The notes beneath the pieces are model-generated. The model worked only from the letters and a program-made list of their open reading frames with translations, was not told the origin of the DNA and did not search any database. DNA of 64,000 nt from the NCBI RefSeq assembly GCF_002854065.1, contig NZ_CP024151.1. One strand, written 5' to 3'. The stretch is from Escherichia coli. Lineage in GTDB: Bacteria > Pseudomonadota > Gammaproteobacteria > Enterobacterales > Enterobacteriaceae. The translations under genes and the position numbers were made by a program. Numbering within the stretch: position 1 is the first letter of the stretch; every line of letters begins with the position of its first letter. Positions 2,503 through 46,462 of the stretch are shown here, piece by piece.

Positions 2503-3639
2503 TTAAAACTGATACATCATACCAACAGCAAGTATATTATCGGTTGCAACTCCAGCCTTTTTGGTAAATTCGCTTTCATCAATAAGGTTAATTTTGTAAT
2601 CAATAAGAAGTGACATGTTTTTGTTCAGAAAGTAGTTTGCGCCAACATCAATATACTCAACAAGAGACTGATCGCCATAGTTTACTATTCCACCTTTAAC
2701 ATCCATCCCTTTGGACTGAACGTAAGCCAGTGAAGGACGCAGGCCGAAATCAAACATATACTGAGCCACAACTTCAATATTCCGTGCTTTATCTGCGATG
2801 CCTGCGCTACCAAATGGAGTCATATTTCGGGTTTCAGAGTAGTCAGCTGCCAGATACAGGTCATTATCATTATACTTGACCCCAACACCTGCAAACTCCG
2901 CATGTTTTCCCCCGGCAATCCAGCGAGGCGTAATAACTTCTTTTCCTTCTGAATCTTTCGATGTCATGAAACGTTTACGGCCTTCTTTTTCCTGCAGACT
3001 GGTTCTGTCGGCATTAGTGTAAGCGGCAACGATTCCAAAACCTTCATAGTCATAGCTTACGGAGAAACCATATCCATCACCATTAGCTTCAAGTAAATTA
3101 TCACGGTCATTTTTACCCTGATATTGAGCAGAAAAAGTAAGTCCATCAACAAGCCCGAAGAAATCTGTATTGCGCCAGGTCAGAACTCCGGTTGTTCTGC
3201 CGGTCATATAGTTATCAGAGTAAGTCCAGCTGTCACCACCAAAGTCCGGAAGTACGTCAGTCAGAGCCCCCACATCATAGGCAACACCATAGTTTCGCCC
3301 ATAATCAAGTGAACCGAGTATATTGTGGCGAATACCTGCAAATGCCAGACGATTTTTATCGTTGCGTACTTCACTTTCTGTCTTAAACCCCAGGAACTGG
3401 TATTCCCACTGACCAAAGCCAGTCAGGCTCTCATTAATTTGTGTTTCGCCTTTGAAACCAAGACGTGCAAATGTTCTGTCGCCATCCATAGAACCATCAG
3501 AGATGTAATGACGGGCTTTAACGCGACCATAAAAATCCAGTTTATTACCGTCTTTATTATAGATTTCTGCTGCCTGTGTTGCCTCACACAGCATTAATGC
3601 AGAAACGACAGAGCACACAACCACACTTAATTTTCGCAT
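2503..3639 (-). CDS. Outer-membrane general porin (OmpC/OmpF/PhoE family)
   Basis: Starts MRKLSVVV... with signal peptide, AEIYNKDGNKLD and GFGQWEYQ motifs, C-terminal ...MMYQF; start taken at internal ATG (track M8). Confidence 0.8.
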   Translation of the reverse strand: MRKLSVVVCSVVSALMLCEATQAAEIYNKDGNKLDFYGRVKARHYISDGSMDGDRTFARLGFKGETQINESLTGFGQWEYQFLGFKTESEVRNDKNRLAFAGIRHNILGSLDYGRNYGVAYDVGALTDVLPDFGGDSWTYSDNYMTGRTTGVLTWRNTDFFGLVDGLTFSAQYQGKNDRDNLLEANGDGYGFSVSYDYEGFGIVAAYTNADRTSLQEKEGRKRFMTSKDSEGKEVITPRWIAGGKHAEFAGVGVKYNDNDLYLAADYSETRNMTPFGSAGIADKARNIEVVAQYMFDFGLRPSLAYVQSKGMDVKGGIVNYGDQSLVEYIDVGANYFLNKNMSLLIDYKINLIDESEFTKKAGVATDNILAVGMMYQF

Positions 3640-4192
3640 AAAAAAATCCCCTGTGCACATTTTTAGTATGGTTTTAAAAATTAAACTATGGCGAAAAAAT
3701 TATCACCATGCAAATATGTAACAAAATATTTCTCGGTGATCTATGTTGTTGTTTTTATTTGAGGTTGTATATTTTCTAGTGTATTTGACTTTTCTTTCTT
3801 AAGTGTTATTTCTCGACCTTTATCACAGAACCATCTCCCTGGATATCCCCATAACATTGCATGAAAAGCAAGTTTTACCAATCTTGATTTTCAGTGTTAA
3901 ATAAGATTAATAACTGTAATTCTGCAAAAAAAAGAACACCATATGTAGTATGACTACGTATTCCACTCTGTTCGTTCACGGACTGGCATCGAAGTCTGAG
4001 GTGTACTGGCAATAGCGGATACAGTCATTTGTTCTTTTTTTAAGCATTCATCCGATGATACTTTTCCTGAATGCTACCGGAGTGGTATTCCCCTGCCGTG
4101 ATAGACTGGCCCCCTGAATCTCCAGACAACCAATATCACTTAAATAAGTGATAGTCTTAATACTAGTTTTTAGACTAGTCATTGGAGAGCAG

Positions 4193-4558
4193 ATGATTGA
4201 TGTCTTAGGACCGGAGAAACGCAGACGGCGTACTACACAGGAAAAGATCGCTATTGTTCAGCAGAGTTTTGAACCGGGAATGACGGTCTCCCTTGTAGCC
4301 CGGCAACACGGTGTGGCAGCCAGCCAGCTATTTCTCTGGCGCAAGCAATACCAGGAGGGAAGTCTTACTGCTGTGGCCGCAGGAGAACAGGTCGTTCCTG
4401 CCTCTGAACTTGCTGCTGCCATGAAGCAGATTAAAGAACTCCAGCGCCTGCTCGGCAAAAAAACGATGGAAAATGAACTCCTTAAAGAAGCCGTTGAATA
4501 TGGGCGTGCAAAAAAGTGGATAGCGCACGCGCCCTTATTGCCCGGGGATGGGGAGTAA
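4193..4558 (+). CDS. insC: IS2 transposase OrfA (InsC)
   Basis: [56 protein letters not shown]... matches IS2 InsC. Confidence 0.9.
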
Positions 4559-5421
4559 GCTTAGTCAGCCGTTGTCTCCGGGTGTCGCGTGCGCAGTTGC
4601 ACGTCATTCTCAGACGAACCGATGACTGGAAAGATGGTCGCCGCAGCCGTCACTCAGATGATATGGATGTACTTCTCCGTATACACCATGTTATCGGAGA
4701 GCTGCCCACGTATGGTTATCGTCGGGTATGGGCGCTGCTTCGCAGACAGGCCGAACTTGATGGTATGCCTGCGATCAATGCCAAACGTGTTTACCGGATC
4801 ATGTGCCAGAATGCGCTGTTGCTTGAGCGAAAAACCGCTGTACCGCCATCGAAGCGGGCACATACTGGCAAAGTGGCCGTGAAAGAAAGCAATCAACGAT
4901 GGTGCTCTGACGGGTTCGAGTTCCGCTGTGATAACGGAGAAAAACTGCGAGTCACGTTCGCGCTGGACTGCTGTGACCGTGAGGCACTGTACTGGGCGGT
5001 CACTACGGGCGGCTTCGACAGTGAAACAGTACAGGACGTCATGCTGGGAGCGGTTGAACGCCGCTTCGGCAACGAGCTTCCGGCGTCTCCAGTAGAGTGG
5101 CTGACGGATAATGGTTCATGCTACCGGGCTAATGAAACACGGCAGTTTGCCCGGATGTTGGGGCTTGAACCGAAGAACACGGCGGTGCGGAGTCCGGAGA
5201 GTAACGGCATAGCAGAGAGCTTCGTGAAAACGATAAAGCGTGACTACATCAGTGTCATGCCTAAACCAGACGGGTTAACGGCAGCAAAGAACCTTGCAGA
5301 GGCGTTCGAGCATTATAACGAATGGCATCCGCATAGTGCACTGGGTTATCGCTCGCCACGGGAATATCTACGGCAGCAGGCCAGTAATGGGTTAAGTGAT
5401 AACAGGTGTCTGGAAATATAG
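4516..5421 (+). CDS. insD: IS2 transposase OrfB (InsD), DDE integrase domain
   Basis: 301 aa ORF overlapping insC in another frame, as in IS3-family elements; matches IS2 InsD. Confidence 0.9.
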
Positions 5422-5832
5422 GGGCAAATCCAGTATCCGGATGTGCTGCCAGCCTTCTCAGTTAACCGATGTTTTCCGGGCTTTTTGCCATACTGAGGAC
5501 TGATAACGTATTCCTGGTCGTAAAACCCGTCAATATGCGCCGGGGCATCGACAAAACTGACACAGTACGTCCGGAAAGAACTTAACGCTGCATGGCACGA
5601 CAATGCTGCCTTTGTCTTTACCAACAAGGCTCGTTCCCGCATAAAAGTTCTACGCCGGGATAAACATGGCGTATGGCTGCGTCAGGCCTTCACTACTTCA
5701 CACCGGAAGTCTTCCAGCCTGACACGAATATACCGTCCGGGCTCTTTCGCAGGTGCAAACAGTTTTTCACATTCGGCGAATGTCATTTCTGAATCCTGGT
5801 AACGCAACCACTGAACCGGCATATTACCGGGT

Positions 5833-6438
5833 TTGATTATTGTCGCAGTTATTTTATATCGTTTCCCCATATCGCCTCTCATCCTGACAACAAAATTACC
5901 GGCTGAGCCAGGGGGCCCTCACCCCCCTATAAGGGGTCCGCTTGGAAACATATCGAAGAAAACGGCCGGCGGGAGGAATACGGCGCGCTACCTGGGTCGT
6001 TATCTGAAGAAGCCGCCGATAGCAGCCTCCCGGCTGGCACATTACAACGGAGGGGCGAGCCTGAGCCTCCGTTACCTGGACCACAAAATGGGAGAAACGG
6101 CGACGGAAACGCTGACACAGCGAGAGCTGGTCGCGAGGCTGAAACAGCACATCCCGGAGAAGTTTTTTAAGATGGTGAGGTACTTCGGGTTCCTTGCCAA
6201 CCGGGTGTGTGGAGAGAAGCTGCCGCAGGTGTACCGTGCTCTGGGGATGGATAAACCGGAAGCAGTGGCGAAAGTGTGCTATGCACAAATGATGAAACAG
6301 TTCCTGAGTCGTGATCCGTTCGAATGCGTGCTGTGTGGCAACCGGATGGTATACCGCCGGTCCCTTGCGGGGCTGAATGTATCAGGGCTGAAGAAAAACG
6401 CGCGGGATATCAGTCTGCTGAGGTATATGCTGGCCTGA
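5833..6438 (+). pseudogene. IS91-family transposase, C-terminal remnant
   Basis: ORF contains ARYLGRYLKKPPIAASRLAHYNGG...LRYLDHK, typical of IS91/IS801 transposase C-termini; no N-terminal HUH/Y2 domain, left part cut by IS2. Confidence 0.4.
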
Positions 6439-6704
6439 CGCAGGCTAAGTGTGCCCGGGAATTGGTGCAGGAATAAAAAACAGCCTGTTGCGGTATAAGA
6501 ATCGACCATGCAGAGAGATAAAACACCGGAGTGGTGGGAAAAGCAGAAGAGCTCACGTGGCATAAGGCGTGGACAGCGGTATCGTCTGGTTTTTCAATTT
6601 CCTATACGTCAAGGATATTTAATGGAATATCAAACATTTGGCCTGATAACAATGCTCAAGGATTAATACCTGCAGGCTATGTTAAAGTTGTCCCCACACA
6701 CAAT

Positions 6705-6980
6705 CTACCTGTTTTCTCGTGTGTGCCACAGGCGCAATACATAAATAGTCTGGCCAGTAAGTTCGTAACGGATTTCGTACTCGCCAGCATAAATCCGTCT
6801 GACCTCCCTGGGTTCAAACTGAAACAACTGTTCTCCCATACGTGGATGAGTTAACAGAATGACCGGTGCCTGTGTCAGGGACTGCACCGTTCTGGCTGCA
6901 GCTGGTTTACTGGCCAGCGCCAGAAAATCATATAACCGCGCCAAATCAGAAAGCGCCTTACTGGTCCACTTCAGTTCCAT
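6705..6980 (-). CDS. Type II toxin, RelE/ParE family
   Basis: 91 aa, start overlaps the stop of the upstream small gene; pattern ...RRIYAGEYEIRYELTGQTIYVLRLWHTRE typical of ParE/RelE. Confidence 0.75.
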   Translation of the reverse strand: MELKWTSKALSDLARLYDFLALASKPAAARTVQSLTQAPVILLTHPRMGEQLFQFEPREVRRIYAGEYEIRYELTGQTIYVLRLWHTRENR

Positions 6981-7264
6981 CAGCGAGGCACCGGTAACGG
7001 ATTGTCAGTACCGAGGCTGTCCGCCCAGGCCTGTACAGCCTGATGGTCGATAACCTGTCCGGATGTCACATCGTCCAGGGCTTCCAGCGTCAGGCGATTA
7101 CGCTCCTCCTCCTGGGCAAGCCATGCAGAAAGCGCCTGTTTGATAATCCAGCCCCGGGACCGTTCCAGTCTGGCGGCCATCTGGTCGACTTTATCAGCCA
7201 TAGGTAATGGCACATGCGCAGTAATTACTTTTGTTACTTGTGCGGTATTGTTTTTCATTTGCAT
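6980..7264 (-). CDS. Type II antitoxin, ribbon-helix-helix (CopG-like)
   Basis: 94 aa immediately upstream of the toxin with 1-nt overlap; RHH-like segment RLERSRGWIIKQALSAWL; start could be the track M1 or the ATG 6 nt downstream. Confidence 0.7.
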   Translation of the reverse strand: MQMKNNTAQVTKVITAHVPLPMADKVDQMAARLERSRGWIIKQALSAWLAQEEERNRLTLEALDDVTSGQVIDHQAVQAWADSLGTDNPLPVPR

Positions 7265-7899
7265 ATCCGATTAGTTGTTAATCATATTTAATCATAGTGA
7301 TTACTTTCAGACGGAACAAGACAAATAATGCGCGTCAGCGCATGTAAGGCGGCATACGGTGGTTACATGTAGCACAGGAGTAAAACCGCCGAAGCCCGGC
7401 GTAAGCCGGTACGGACTGATAGATTTCACCTTACCCATCCCCAGCCCTGCCAGACCATACCCGCTTTCAGCCATGAGAGAGCTTCTGTGCGCGGTCGGAG
7501 TGGTCCCGACGAGGGTTTACCCGAAGTCGGGGCGTATCTCCGCGTTAGCGGGCCGTCAGGGCCGCTTACGAGCGTGTACTGAGAACTTCCAGCCAGAAGA
7601 CTGACAGCAATGATAATGTAGTTACAACATTCATAATTAAAAGCGACTCTGTTCCGGCCCGAAGGGCCGGGGCGGGGCCGCTTTTCAGTTATGAGGGAGG
7701 GGCTTTGTGGTTTCAGTTCTGCGCGGGACCGGGGTTTTCCTGGTGGTTGTATTTGAGTGTTGTAACTAAAATGGCTCCGGTCGGGGCCCGCCGCTTGCGG
7801 TGGGAGGTGCATATCTGTCTGTCCACAGGACAGGCAGTGAATAGGTTTTCTTTTTAAATGAATGTAGTTAAGTAGTTTAAAGGAGATATAAACAGGTGT

Positions 7900-8174
7900 T
7901 TAAAAGATACATTGCACCCTGTAAGGCTGGCGGATGGCGCTTTATGACATGAACGGTTGTAACCTTATGGGGAAGTCCCTTGCAGTTAAATGTGGATAAG
8001 CAAAATTCCTCGTCTGTGAGGCGTGTTTTGTATCAAAAACAGGAGGGACCGGATGCACCTGAAGGTGGATGATGAGGTTGTTTTTTGTATGCGGTGCTGT
8101 TTTTTTGTTCGCCGACAGGCTTCAGGCGTGCAGATGCCTCCGGTGCGGGCCGGATTATTCAGAGGAGGTCACTT
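7900..8174 (-). other. RepFIIA-type origin of replication (oriR) region, approximate
   Basis: Immediately downstream of repA1; DnaA box TGTGGATAA at about 7991-7999; AT-rich stretch. Confidence 0.5.
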
Positions 8175-9032
8175 TCAGGGGGAAGCTGTGGCCAGCCGGC
8201 TGTAATTACGGTTACGTGACAGAATCATGCGCTCTTTCACACGACGCTCCACTTCGCGTTTTACCGCCTCACGATTGGCAGTGAAGCGCCCTTCCGAGAT
8301 TTCACGCGTCAGCTGCCGTTTCACCAGGGTGACGATATCCTGACGTTCCCTGTTCGCATCACGACGCGCACGGGCACGCTTTATTCCACGGGACTTAAGC
8401 TCTGTCTGGTAACTGCGGAAACGCTCACGCACAAAACGCCAGGCTTTCGCTATCAGTTCATCCATACCCAGGGTATCCAGTCCCTGCTTTTTGCGCTGTC
8501 TGTTTTCCCATTCAACACGACTGCGGCGCGCAGCAACTACTGCATCCTCAGACACATCAAGGGCGGCAAATAGCGCCGGTGTGAACGTGATATCGGTCGG
8601 AATGTAGCACCCGATAAGCGGATCATATTCCGTCTGGTAGGTAATCAGTCCCAGCTCTGCAAGGAACGTCAAGGCTCGGGTGGCCCGGGTGATGGAGAGT
8701 TTTCCGGCAGCAGACTCCGTCGCCAGTCCGCACTCAATGGCCAGCGTAGTGATGGAGCACTGGACGCGGTTGGCCAGCGGGTCATAGTGAAAACACAGCC
8801 CCTGCAGCAGCGCATCAATAGCCCGGCGACGCAGTACCGGTGGCATGCGCCGACGCAGTCCCTTCGAACGGGCATGTGCCACATGAATGGCGAAATCAAA
8901 ACGGGAGGTGAAGCCCACCGCCTTTTCCATCAGTTTTTCGCAGAACTTCAGCGTTCCGGCACCTTCACGGGGTGTGAACACCGGATTCGGGTTTTTAACC
9001 TGTGAATAGTATTTTTGAAGGAGATCAGCCAT
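8175..9032 (-). CDS. repA1: Replication initiator RepA1 (IncFII)
   Basis: From internal ATG: [56 protein letters not shown]..., near-identical to R100/R1 RepA1. Confidence 0.9.
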
Positions 9033-9108
9033 GTCCCCCTCCAACACTATTCCCCCTCCTACGGGCGGCAACTAGCTCGTCTGGGCCGACACGTAAAGTT
9101 TCGAACAT
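9025..9108 (-). CDS. tap: repA1 leader peptide (tap/repA6-like), translationally coupled
   Basis: 27-codon [30 protein letters not shown] whose stop overlaps the repA1 start codon, the arrangement known for IncFII tap. Confidence 0.45.
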
Positions 9109-9805
9109 ATCTGGTCTGAACCAGATGGTTCCTCCATCAAAAGCGATGAGATGAAGATCATTATCAAGAGTTTTGAGGGCTCTCCAAACACGAGTGTATG
9201 AACCTCCACTACAAACTGAAAGCTCTTTAACAGATAAGTTAACTTTGTTCGTATCAGGGATGTAGTGTGCGCACATTACTTGTACGAGGGAAACATAAAA
9301 ACTAACCATCGACGCGCTGATTTTATTTTTACGTTTGCCATGCGCTATTGCAAGAAAACCTCTGATGAAGATCAGATGCTTGAAGGAGTCAAAATGAGCC
9401 CTTTTCTGGAGAAGGCAGCAAAACGGGTGAGGATACTTGCTGGAATCAATGTGAAGATCTGATTCAATCCCACCCGCTATTACTGAATGTGTTTCATGAT
9501 TAGCCACACCATCCTGCACTTACAATGCACAGAAGGAGTGAGCACAGAAAGAAGTCTTGAACTTTTCCGGGCATATAACTATACTCCCCGCATAGCTGAA
9601 TTGTTGGCTATGCGGTTTTATGGGGCCCCGGTAATCTTTCTAGTCGCCAAACTTGAAGAAGATTATCGGGGTTTTCGCTTTTCTGGCTCCTGTAAATCCA
9701 CATCAGAACCAGTTCCCTGCCACCTTACGGCGTGGCCAGCCACAAAATTCCTTAAACGATCAGCAATCTACCACTCACTCCTGAGATAAGCAAGAATGTG
9801 AATAT

Positions 9806-10063
9806 TTACGAAGTCGCTCTGCGTTTCAACTCTGATTCAATCAGTTTTTCAAGCATCTGCGCCTGAGTAATACCTTCCTCATCCGCAAGTTCACTCAGCC
9901 TGTCTTTTAACCGGGCCTGAATAACCGCATGAAAAGCCTTATGAGTGTTGCTTCTGCGAGCCAGAGAAGCTCTTTGCCTCTCTCTGGCCGGAACAGGGTT
10001 ACCTTTCCGGTATGTACGCTTGGTGCCTGATGAGGAAGTCACTGCATTTTCTGTCTGCGACAT
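9806..10063 (-). CDS. copB: Copy-number control repressor CopB (RepA2)
   Basis: [11 protein letters not shown]...[17 protein letters not shown] resembles R100 RepA2/CopB. Confidence 0.85.
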
Positions 10064-46183: not shown

Positions 46184-46241
46184 GGCCTTCTTCTCCTTGC
46201 GCAAAGCGCGGTAAGAGGCTATCCTGATGTGGACTAGACAT
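46029..46241 (-). CDS. mok: Mok/FlmC-like overlapping reading frame
   Basis: 70-codon ORF overlapping hok in the +1 frame. Confidence 0.6.
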
Positions 46242-46462
46242 AGGGATGCCTCGTGGTGGTTAATGAAAATTAACTTACTACGGGGCTATCTTCTTTCTGT
46301 CACACAACACGGCAACAAACCACCTTCACGTCATGAGGCAGAAAGCCTCAAGCGCCGGGCACATCATAGCCCATATACCTGCACGCTGACCACACTCACT
46401 TTCCCTGAAAATAATCCGCTCATTCAGACCGTTCACGGGAAATCCGTGTGATTGTTGCCGCA

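Follow-up and report, generated by a model that had tools for sequence, protein, structure and literature searches.

A predicted ParE-type toxin–antitoxin operon beside the replication origin of an IncFII-type plasmid of Escherichia coli

Organisation of the Locus

The window (the whole stretch of 64 kb from Escherichia coli, contig NZ_CP024151.1, that was analysed here) holds two small minus-strand genes lying between an IncFII-type replicon and insertion sequence remnants on the cargo side. The features of the region are the following:

4148–5421: IS3-family orfA/orfB, on the cargo side of the pair
5948–6613, plus strand: truncated IS91-family element, with the 3' part of the transposase gene running to 6438 and the element end at about 6609–6613
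6705–6980, minus strand: toxin ORF, 91 aa; Pfam ParE_toxin (PF05016), predicted ParE branch of the RelE/ParE superfamily
6980–7264, minus strand: antitoxin ORF, 94 aa from the ATG at 7264; Pfam RHH_1
7279–7303, unstranded: putative operator, made up of the palindrome TAATCA-N3-TGATTA (7289–7303) and a third TAATCA half-site
7281–7310, minus strand: candidate sigma-70-like promoter from a consensus scan (−35 CTGAAA, 18-nt spacer, −10 TATGAT)
7328–7343, minus strand: terminator-like element, a conserved GC-rich hairpin (ATGCGC-TGAC-GCGCAT) with a U-rich tract behind it
7991–7999, minus strand: DnaA box of oriR, a perfect match (TTATCCACA) located 176 bp past the stop codon of repA
8175–9032, minus strand: IncFII repA (Pfam IncFII_repA; PGAP annotation of an identical record)

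An earlier note on this DNA had proposed a RelE/ParE–RHH toxin–antitoxin (TA) pair at 6705–7264, and two minus-strand ORFs that match Pfam PF05016 and RHH_1 lie exactly there. These genes are small, adjacent, and co-directional, with the antitoxin first, as is the layout of type II TA operons, and they overlap by one base, the TGA of the antitoxin and the ATG of the toxin reading TGATG. The toxin matches PF05016 with an E-value of 1.3e-16 and 61.4 bits (cut-off 23), which places it in a recognised toxin superfamily. The antitoxin holds an RHH_1 DNA-binding domain (E-value 3.7e-11, residues 14–51) and a toxin-binding region (residues 55–89), the latter recognised by alignment with the tail of the antitoxin CopASO. 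Both the domain scores and the gene arrangement of the pair far exceed what is expected by chance. The second ATG (7258) is the more probable start of the antitoxin, which would then have 92 residues, since this start is favoured by the Shine–Dalgarno spacing and by the alignment with an Aeromonas homologue; 92-aa versions are also present in databases.

The pair is already known, as identical proteins carry RelE/ParE toxin and RHH annotations in public plasmid records (WP_063073486.1 in the case of the toxin). Among the NCBIfam naming models, the toxin has no match and the antitoxin has only sub-threshold ones. A search of the literature, which covers open-access text only and in which absence is not proof, returned no experimental study of this exact pair.

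The replicon follows the IncFII-type (RepFIIA/FIC) order copB(repA2)–tap–repA1–oriR, with the DnaA box downstream of repA and with matches to both Pfam IncFII_repA and RepB-RCR_reg, and its DNA is 93% identical to that of R100 from repA to position 7331. The AT-richest stretch of the region corresponds to positions 7750–8049. The antitoxin ORF starts about 730 bp past the DnaA box and 911 bp past the stop codon of repA, so that the proposed location next to the replication origin holds, with "adjacent" taken loosely. Pair and origin are separated by a conserved non-coding block of roughly 470 bp (7331–7800), and at least 5,000 plasmids conserve the part of it from 7331 to 7760. Base composition over 5800–9200 shows no anomaly that would mark the module as foreign. 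A Tus/Ter site suspected by eye at 7343–7370 was discarded, its core being mismatched and the stretch not being conserved in R100. An extra RepA-like ORF is also present between tap and repA.

Assignment of the Toxin to the ParE Branch

A PDB search with the single toxin sequence only reached E-values of about 0.01, too weak to separate ParE from RelE; the question was settled by a profile and a fold search. The profile, built from 57 homologues at 37–71% identity and searched against the PDB, matched ParE-type chains only (7ETR_C, 6X0A, 5CEG, 6XRW, 5CW7/5CZF, 8C24, 3KXE, and 7YCS), the best of them being ParESO (7ETR_C, E-value 1.9e-11). The sole match with a RelE label was weak (2KHE, a "Toxin-like protein" elsewhere described as T. 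thermophilus RelE), and no chain of E. coli RelE, YoeB, YafQ, or HigB appeared at E ≤ 1.

The AlphaFold (AF2) model of the toxin (pLDDT 97.1) exhibits the ParE layout of one strand, two long helices, and a three-stranded sheet (E2–5, H7–21, H25–43, E60–65, E68–75, and E78–86), and it ends without a C-terminal helix. In E. coli RelE, the C-terminal helix bears the catalytic Tyr. The best 22 Foldseek matches of the model are all ParE-type toxins (TM 0.75–0.88), whereas RelE, YoeB, YafQ, and HigB rank below them (TM 0.46–0.70). Identity to structurally solved ParE proteins is low (16–26% in the Foldseek alignments). The homologue alignment reveals Arg61, Tyr72, His86, and Arg91 as near-invariant in the toxin family. 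Near the end of the toxin, "WHTRE", which includes His86, is matched in the alignment by the ParE motif "LHqR", with which M. tuberculosis ParE1 ends. Thus, with a predicted fold closest to solved ParE proteins and a sequence profile that recognises ParE, the toxin is assigned to the ParE branch, not to the RelE branch.

The competing assignment, a RelE-like ribosome-dependent mRNA endonuclease in place of a gyrase poison within an otherwise identical TA logic, appears improbable. PF05016 spans RelE and ParE alike, the public annotation goes no further than "RelE/ParE family", RelE-type structures do occur lower in the fold search (9G12, 2KHE, and 3G5O, TM 0.65–0.70), and the near-invariant positions are occupied by Arg, Tyr, and His, residue types also used by RNases of the RelE/ParE fold. 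Nevertheless, the outcome of the profile search, the ranking of the structural matches, the lack of a C-terminal helix in the model, and the ParE motif at the C-terminus all argue against a RelE-like enzyme.

Relationship to Characterized Systems

The characterised system closest to the pair by sequence is ParESO–CopASO from the Shewanella oneidensis prophage CP4So (SO_1444/SO_1445, PDB 7ETR), where both partners are homologous to those described here (PMC8706911). ParESO, the best PDB match of the toxin, is 36% identical to it over 45 aa. CopASO (7ETR_A), in turn, is the best PDB match of the antitoxin (E-value 1.2e-4, residues 15–89), with 30% identity over 69 aa that include the toxin-binding tail, and with the RHH domain aligned as well. 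It is the C-terminal tail of CopASO that binds the toxin, and His91 of ParESO, which aligns with His86, is essential for toxicity (PMC8706911). Both systems share an RHH_1/CopG antitoxin encoded upstream of a ParE-fold toxin of approximately 90 residues, and a palindrome in the promoter serves as the operator in Shewanella (GTANTAC-N3-GTANTAC) and is a putative operator, of different sequence, here (TAATCA-N3-TGATTA). They differ in their low identity and in their host element, a prophage in one case and an F-type plasmid in the other. Moreover, according to the predicted fold of the toxin, 7ETR_C ranks below 6XRW, 8C24, 6X0A, and 5CW7.

Much higher identity is found in a pair of the same family located beside tnpR in an Aeromonas Tn3-family transposon, with roughly 80% aa identity for the translations of both toxin and antitoxin (80% for the toxin in the case of the cluster representative P0085). 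This pair shares the operator core and the one-base-overlap organisation, but it is divergent from the resolvase gene of a transposon instead of lying beside a plasmid origin. A ParE–RHH pair next to tnpR has been described for the Tn5501 group (PMC7157771), the likeness being one of description. When compared with the Aeromonas and Pseudomonas copies, the toxin gene shows a dN of 0.13–0.16 while synonymous sites are saturated, 78–89% of them being different, which indicates that it is under strong purifying selection.

On the other hand, ParD/ParE from RK2 and the chromosomal ParDE systems from Caulobacter (3KXE), P. aeruginosa (6XRW), M. tuberculosis (8C24), and V. cholerae (7R5A) match the toxin by fold (TM 0.75–0.85). 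They consist of an autoregulated operon with an RHH-type antitoxin, and toxicity is directed to gyrase in the tested members. However, their toxins are only 16–26% identical to this one in structural alignments, and the ParD family of RK2 is PF09386, whereas the antitoxin described here matches RHH_1 only.

Putative Operator and Promoter

The region upstream of the antitoxin gene holds a palindrome with an additional half-site, part of which is formed by two copies of the 9-bp direct repeat TTAATCATA (7278–7296). The palindrome TAATCA-N3-TGATTA occurs once in the 64-kb window; since 10 of 100 shuffled sequences also contained at least one match, this uniqueness is weak by itself. The Aeromonas transposon pair, with its identity of roughly 80%, keeps the operator core AATCACTATGATTAA ahead of its genes, although the flanking DNA is otherwise different there. 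The candidate promoter overlaps the palindrome. Promoter-consensus matches in the region are as numerous as expected from shuffling, so the site is no more than suggestive when taken alone, and what makes it the likely promoter is that it overlaps the palindrome and lies 17 nt ahead of the antitoxin ORF. The putative operator would be the place where the antitoxin binds.

The Slot behind the Replication Block

The hairpin at 7328–7343, which belongs to the minimum-free-energy fold, is the last element in common with other F-type replicons, and the downstream modules diverge there. Homology to the window stops within 7325–7331 in all 12 plasmids compared (R100 and 11 others), and what follows differs among them: tir-pemIK in R100 and four sampled plasmids (in pEK516, IS26 has left no more than the beginning of tir), yacAB in two, a Gp49/HTH pair placed ahead of the ParE–RHH pair in one, and an unknown 114-aa ORF in another. 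With the ParE–RHH pair, at least five different occupants are thus found behind oriR in F-type plasmids, with a sharp boundary on the origin side. These comparisons bear out the earlier proposal, made for many IncFII plasmids, of a different addiction module at the equivalent place, seen here in other F-type replicons, and they indicate that the slot begins right after the terminator-like hairpin that ends the FII-type replication block, its occupants being interchangeable.

The commonest occupant, PemI/PemK (Kis/Kid) of R100 and R1, is the addiction module that classic IncFII plasmids carry at the equivalent place downstream of oriR. The gene before it is tir, of the CPBP protease family, and the module itself consists of a MazF-type endoribonuclease and an AbrB-type antitoxin, families unrelated to those of the pair. 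YacA/YacB, or ParDE-I, of IncI and IncF plasmids is easily confused with the pair, because both are annotated as "RelE/ParE + RHH" and can stand side by side. It comprises a ParE-superfamily toxin and an RHH-like antitoxin, occupies the same slot after the hairpin, and in some plasmids lies directly upstream of the ParE–RHH pair; plasmid stabilisation, SOS induction, and filamentation have been demonstrated for it experimentally (Kamruzzaman & Iredell 2019, PMC6614396). The two modules are nevertheless distinct: the toxin is 26% identical to YacB, the antitoxin has no significant similarity to YacA, and YacAB uses a promoter in common with R100 tir, not the TAATCA promoter.

Prevalence was counted in PLSDB with junction-spanning queries at ≥80% query cover, a cover that can be reached without the conserved flank, so that the figures measure module prevalence and not strict adjacency to oriR: 3,015 plasmids for tir-pemIK, 1,725 for yacAB, 1,196 for Gp49/HTH, and at least 1,446 for the intact ParE–RHH pair. 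In E. coli, Klebsiella, Shigella, and Salmonella, the pair is carried by well over a thousand F-type plasmids associated with resistance and virulence. In about 900 plasmids, the toxin gene survives only as a dead 3' remnant, and the module must accordingly be dispensable to many backbones.

The IS remnants reported on the cargo side are real, and comprise the truncated IS91-family element and the IS3-family element. In the former, 5833–6438 (plus strand) matches positions 96–180 of the 183-position Y2_Tnp profile of Pfam, i.e., the C-terminal part only, and a plasmid in which the IS91-family copy is intact shares DNA homology from 5948 onwards. The end of the element is bracketed by one plasmid whose homology stops at 6613 and by two IS-free plasmids whose homology starts at 6610. 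The earlier note had taken these remnants as a sign of module exchange at this site. Exchange itself is supported by the 12 breakpoints, but on the origin side it takes place at the hairpin, not at an IS end; the IS91-family element adjoins the far side only, and hence the remnants explain the turnover of cargo and not the swap of modules.

A more specific role of the hairpin can be entertained, though the chance of it being right is slim. Besides ending transcription, it might serve as a defined hotspot of recombination and so turn the stretch behind oriR into a cassette slot. This is suggested by the 12 breaks within 7 bp of its 3' side, by the five occupants, and by one plasmid in which the hairpin recurs in diverged form, with ~15 bp of its upstream flank, after yacAB and just before the ParE–RHH pair. 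If true, TA modules would be swapped or stacked at this point, each of them with its own promoter.

Proposed Mechanism of Action

The pair is likely to be a functional type II TA addiction operon, formed by a ParE-type toxin and an RHH antitoxin and transcribed from its own promoter away from oriR. This reading brings together the gene structure, the domain and fold assignments, the homology of both partners to a characterized system, the conserved palindrome, the purifying selection, and the variability of the slot. The antitoxin is expected to dimerise through its N-terminal ribbon-helix-helix domain and to bind the TAATCA-N3-TGATTA repeats over the promoter, repressing the operon, whereas its C-terminal tail would wrap the toxin and neutralise it. 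Translation of the toxin would be coupled to that of the antitoxin through the TGATG overlap. Upon plasmid loss, degradation of a labile antitoxin would free the stable ParE-type toxin, which would most probably poison DNA gyrase; the cells would suffer DNA breaks, induce the SOS response, form filaments, and stop growing or die, and in this way plasmid-free segregants would be removed. For this pair, it is inferred that the antitoxin binds DNA and is labile, that the toxin is toxic, and that gyrase is its target.

As regards the target, a ParE-fold toxin acting on an as yet undefined cellular target other than DNA gyrase is considered rather unlikely. Gyrase is inhibited by both of the top two fold matches, ParE1 from P. 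aeruginosa (6XRW) and ParE1 from M. tuberculosis (8C24). Most of the tested ParE toxins inhibit it through GyrA (PMC8706911). However, for ParESO, the closest characterised relative by sequence, growth inhibition and filamentation are reported, but neither a demonstrated inhibition of gyrase nor a molecular target (PMC8706911). Furthermore, ParE2 from E. coli O157 (5CW7), which is among the best structural matches of the toxin, does not inhibit gyrase (PMC8706911).

Similarly, there is a small probability that the pair is kept mainly for plasmid–plasmid competition or for phage defence by abortive infection, or that it is a selfish hitch-hiker from which the plasmid gains little. Related plasmids already bear other stability functions near the replicon (hok and parM/stbB), many backbones hold only the dead toxin-gene remnant, and the same module is carried by Tn3-family transposons. 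The exchange of four or more TA modules in the slot, where two can stack, also fits selfish or competitive dynamics. Such a role is compatible with the addiction operon proposed here, as the molecular mechanism would be the same, and the experimental stabilisation of plasmids by ParDE-I (YacAB), the module of the neighbouring slot, speaks for maintenance (PMC6614396).

A second role of the antitoxin in replication control, like that of PrpA of pMBL6842, is highly improbable. In such a role, the antitoxin would attach to the DNA of the origin and keep the copy number down, and this would account for the location of the pair beside oriR. A ParE-type TA system whose antitoxin binds origin iterons provides the precedent (PMC7848731), PrpT (7YCS) is among the structures that the toxin matches, and about 500 bp separate the pair from oriR; nonetheless, PrpA is a PF03693 protein and not an RHH_1 one, and a search of the oriR/repA region for the operator palindrome and its 8-mer half-site returned no copy. 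Unrelated modules (pemIK, yacAB, and Gp49/HTH) fill the slot on equally successful replicons and the same ParE–RHH pair occurs in a transposon context, which argues that the position is not tied to the antitoxin protein. Antisense RNA and CopB exert the control in FII-type replicons, which are not known to have iterons.

As a pair, the addiction operon proposed here is ordinary and its family widespread, so it carries little weight as a discovery. It is 76–84% conserved across Proteobacteria, as is typical of mobile TA modules.

The pair and its reading frames

The interval 6705-7264 is filled exactly by two ORFs on the minus strand of the ORF list, in which the stop codon of the antitoxin and the start codon of the toxin overlap by one base (TGATG), the usual mark of translational coupling in toxin-antitoxin (TA) operons.

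6980..7264, minus strand: antitoxin ORF of 94 aa, beginning MQMKNNTAQVTKVITAHVPLPMADKVDQMAARLERSRGW
6705..6980, minus strand: toxin ORF of 91 aa, beginning MELKWTSKALSDLARLYDFLA and ending LRLWHTRENR

According to Pfam, the upstream protein holds an RHH_1 domain (residues 14-51, E 3.7e-11) and the downstream protein matches ParE_toxin (PF05016) over its full length (E 1.3e-16), while an NCBIfam search with both proteins returned no specific naming model for either. The exact fit of the ORFs, the codon overlap and the Pfam domains therefore confirm the RelE/ParE-RHH pair that the earlier note had read here, and exclude a chance pattern. The antitoxin is probably 92 aa long and starts at the second ATG (7258), because GGA lies seven bases upstream of this codon and just one base upstream of the first (7264), the start residue of the Aeromonas homologue aligns with Met3, and versions of 92 aa are present in databases.

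Between the toxin and its Aeromonas and Pseudomonas copies, 78-89% of synonymous sites differ, with a dN of just 0.13-0.16. An F-plasmid variant with 92% identity gives dN/dS values of 0.45 (toxin) and 0.21 (antitoxin), which rest on very few changes. The toxin family comprises 3,683 clusters at 90% identity (E<=0.001), and the toxin is 76-84% conserved in many Proteobacteria, a pattern typical of a mobile, selected module. The pair is a real and intact ParE/RHH addiction module, and probably a functional one.

Replicon context

Three E. coli plasmid records match positions 6400-7700 at 100% identity, among them the PGAP-annotated pPM4-5-103k (IncFIB/IncFIC), where the genes are labelled 'ribbon-helix-helix domain-containing protein' and 'type II toxin-antitoxin system RelE/ParE family toxin'. 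The pair is already known in this sense, with a correct family-level annotation in public records; an experimental study of exactly this pair was not found in the searchable literature.

Gene order, from the PGAP annotation of pPM4-5-103k converted to window positions
9806-10063, minus strand: copB/repA2
9500-9574, minus strand: tap
9025-9507 (region noted to 9519), minus strand: 160-aa hypothetical ORF
8175-9032, minus strand: repA
6705-7264, minus strand: TA pair
5682-5870, minus strand: DUF1187 gene
4193-5421, plus strand: IS3-family element

The IS3-family element is followed by sulfatase and porin cargo and an IS1. Pfam agrees with this order (IncFII_repA, CopB-type regulator and IS3-family domains) and adds an IS91-family Y2 transposase at 5833-6438, of which the C-terminal part alone matches. 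A perfect DnaA box (7991-7999) lies 176 bp past the repA stop, within the AT-richest part of the region, at the place of oriR in R1/R100-type replicons. The pair begins ~730 bp past this box and 911 bp past repA, and a conserved non-coding block separates it from oriR.

The 160-aa ORF, labelled 'hypothetical' in both pPM4-5-103k and pMTY3755_IncF, overlaps both tap (the RepA leader peptide gene) and repA, and corresponds to a 467-bp insertion missing from R100. It has no match in Pfam, but is 34% identical over 98 aa (E 3e-9) to the middle section of RepA in the window, and is thus a partial, diverged paralogue of RepA that lies in the path of translational coupling from tap to repA.

The toxin branch and its proposed target

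ParE proteins are gyrase poisons and RelE proteins are ribosome-dependent RNases, and membership in PF05016 leaves the two undistinguished. A single-sequence search of the PDB with the toxin gave weak matches only, to ParESO of Shewanella oneidensis, P. aeruginosa ParE1 and M. tuberculosis ParE1. Diverse homologues were then collected, and a profile from an alignment of 57 full-length sequences at 37-71% identity matched ParE-type entries exclusively, with 7ETR_C (ParESO) as the best (E 1.9e-11), followed by 6X0A, 5CEG, 6XRW, 5CW7/5CZF, 8C24, 3KXE and 7YCS; E. coli RelE, YoeB, YafQ and HigB were not among its matches up to E=1. The AlphaFold2 model built on this alignment is very confident (pLDDT 97.1), and consists of a strand, two long helices and a three-stranded sheet, without a C-terminal helix. 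In Foldseek, the first 22 chains are all ParE-type (TM 0.75-0.88, rmsd 1.5-2.8 Å), and RNase-type relatives rank lower (TM 0.46-0.70). Finally, the near-invariant His86 corresponds in alignments to ParESO His91, which has been reported as essential for toxicity (PMC8706911), and to the C-terminal 'LHqR' of M. tuberculosis ParE1. The profile search, the fold search of the predicted structure and the His86 alignment together place the toxin in the ParE branch. Gyrase is proposed as its target with no more than moderate confidence, since not all toxins of the ParE fold inhibit this enzyme (PMC8706911).

Antitoxin, putative operator and promoter-like site

Among solved structures, the antitoxin has its best match in CopASO, which partners ParESO (E 1.2e-4); the match, with 30% identity over 69 aa, takes in the RHH domain as well as the toxin-binding tail at the C-terminus. 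Both proteins are thus homologous to the partners of one characterised pair. Upstream of the antitoxin ORF, the following elements are found.

7310 to 7281, minus strand: sigma-70-like site (-35 CTGAAA, 18-nt spacer, -10 TATGAT)
7289-7303: perfect palindrome TAATCA-N3-TGATTA, overlapped by the sigma-70-like site

The sigma-70-like site also overlaps a third half-site and a 9-bp direct repeat. The palindrome occurs once within the 64-kb window, and its 15-nt core, AATCACTATGATTAA, recurs 5' of the ~80%-identical Aeromonas pair in a Tn3-family transposon. It is a putative operator with good comparative support, because the core is kept there amid DNA otherwise dissimilar to the window. The P. 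aeruginosa copy of the pair lacks the palindrome, and transcription from genes upstream may account for its expression.

Comparison with known systems

The pair is a distant member of the ParESO-CopASO subfamily; by analogy it would work like that system, although its operator differs. Identity with ParDE-I/YacAB, which is annotated like the window pair and can adjoin it, was rejected, since the toxin is only 26% identical and the antitoxin shows no identity. A PrpT/PrpA type was also rejected: the antitoxin family differs, and the operator motif was not found in the window's origin region.

In Tn3-family transposons, a close relative of the pair adjoins tnpR/tnpA, an organisation that resembles the one published for the Tn5501 group (PMC7157771). 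In Aeromonas plasmids and metagenomes (L015-L017, 1-1800), the ~80%-identical pair (protein level) is divergent from tnpR/tnpA, and a carbonic anhydrase gene comes after it. This transposon is homologous to the common E. coli Tn3-family copies up to ~1149, just before the TA promoter, in agreement with the res-site module exchange described in PMC7157771.

The variable position behind oriR

At the place where the pair sits, F-type plasmids are well known to vary. The 560 bp of the pair match 2,801 PLSDB plasmids, 1,449 of them at >=80% cover, mainly conjugative and mainly from Escherichia, Klebsiella, Shigella and Salmonella; at least 5,000 plasmids contain the conserved block beside oriR (7331-7760). 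R100 aligns at 93% identity from repA to 7331 and shows no homology beyond, where it carries tir and then pemI/pemK. In all compared plasmids homology breaks at 7325-7331, the 3' side of a conserved hairpin.

7328-7343: terminator-like hairpin ATGCGC-TGAC-GCGCAT, followed by a U-rich tract and contained in the minimum-free-energy fold

Occupants after the hairpin, from six plasmids evenly spaced down the match ranking of the conserved block and plasmids found earlier
tir-pemIK: R100 and three sampled plasmids (L009-L011)
IS26-cut tir: pEK516
yacAB (published ParDE-I): L014, and L002 (p11011-CTXM) ahead of a copy of the TA pair
Gp49-type toxin and HTH antitoxin, in front of the TA pair: L003
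114-aa ORF without a Pfam match: L013 (pMTY3755_IncF)
TA pair alone: window, L001

Junction-spanning queries (>=80% cover) retrieved 3,015 plasmids for tir-pemIK, 1,725 for yacAB, 1,446 for the TA pair and 1,196 for Gp49/HTH. The expectation of different addiction modules at this position in other IncFII plasmids is thus borne out. The varied occupants after one break point also support the module exchange suggested in the earlier note; however, the IS remnants are not at the exchange point but on the far side of the pair. There, the IS91-family element, with its transposase gene truncated at 5948, ends at ~6609-6613, and IS-free plasmids share native sequence from 6610 on. Its mapped end is abutted by CAAG (6610-6613), one target of IS91-type rolling-circle elements. 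The sole reading left with some mild novelty, that the hairpin is a specific recombination hotspot defining a TA cassette slot, is considered improbable.

Several further features were observed at this position. In L002, an IncI-gamma/K plasmid, a second, diverged hairpin with ~15 bp of upstream flank follows yacAB just before the TA pair (hairpin regions at about 4940-4990 and 5700-5740), which looks like cassette-style stacking. Past the hairpin, ~55 bp (ATCCTGGTRACRATATCTGAAT...GTAATGAC) are common to the upstream regions of R100-type tir and yacA (R100 46215-46275; L002 about 5640-5700; also L014), with divergence setting in only a few bases ahead of the start codons; these unrelated first genes thus appear to share one promoter region. 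The 114-aa ORF of pMTY3755_IncF (2569-2913, minus strand), beginning MDLYHFTAI, may represent a TA-slot occupant not yet characterised.

Diverged and remnant copies

In L002, the RHH gene (4614-4898) is the sole listed CDS of the pair, DNA homology continues through the toxin region at 89%, and the operator lacks one 10-bp repeat. The toxin may be a pseudogene, a class that PLSDB tables omit, and the antitoxin orphaned.

Roughly 900 plasmids, a figure extrapolated from evenly spaced rows of the PLSDB pair matches, carry only a dead 3' remnant of the toxin gene that lacks the start codon, and have no antitoxin (window 6705-6944; 4406-4741 in L004/L005). Among the carriers are plasmids with CTX-M-15, KPC or RmtB from E. 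coli, Klebsiella and Shigella. The remnant adjoins parM/stbB, and IS1/IS26 resistance regions come next, suggesting an ancestral order of oriR, TA pair and stb partition locus that would later have been eroded by resistance-region insertion.
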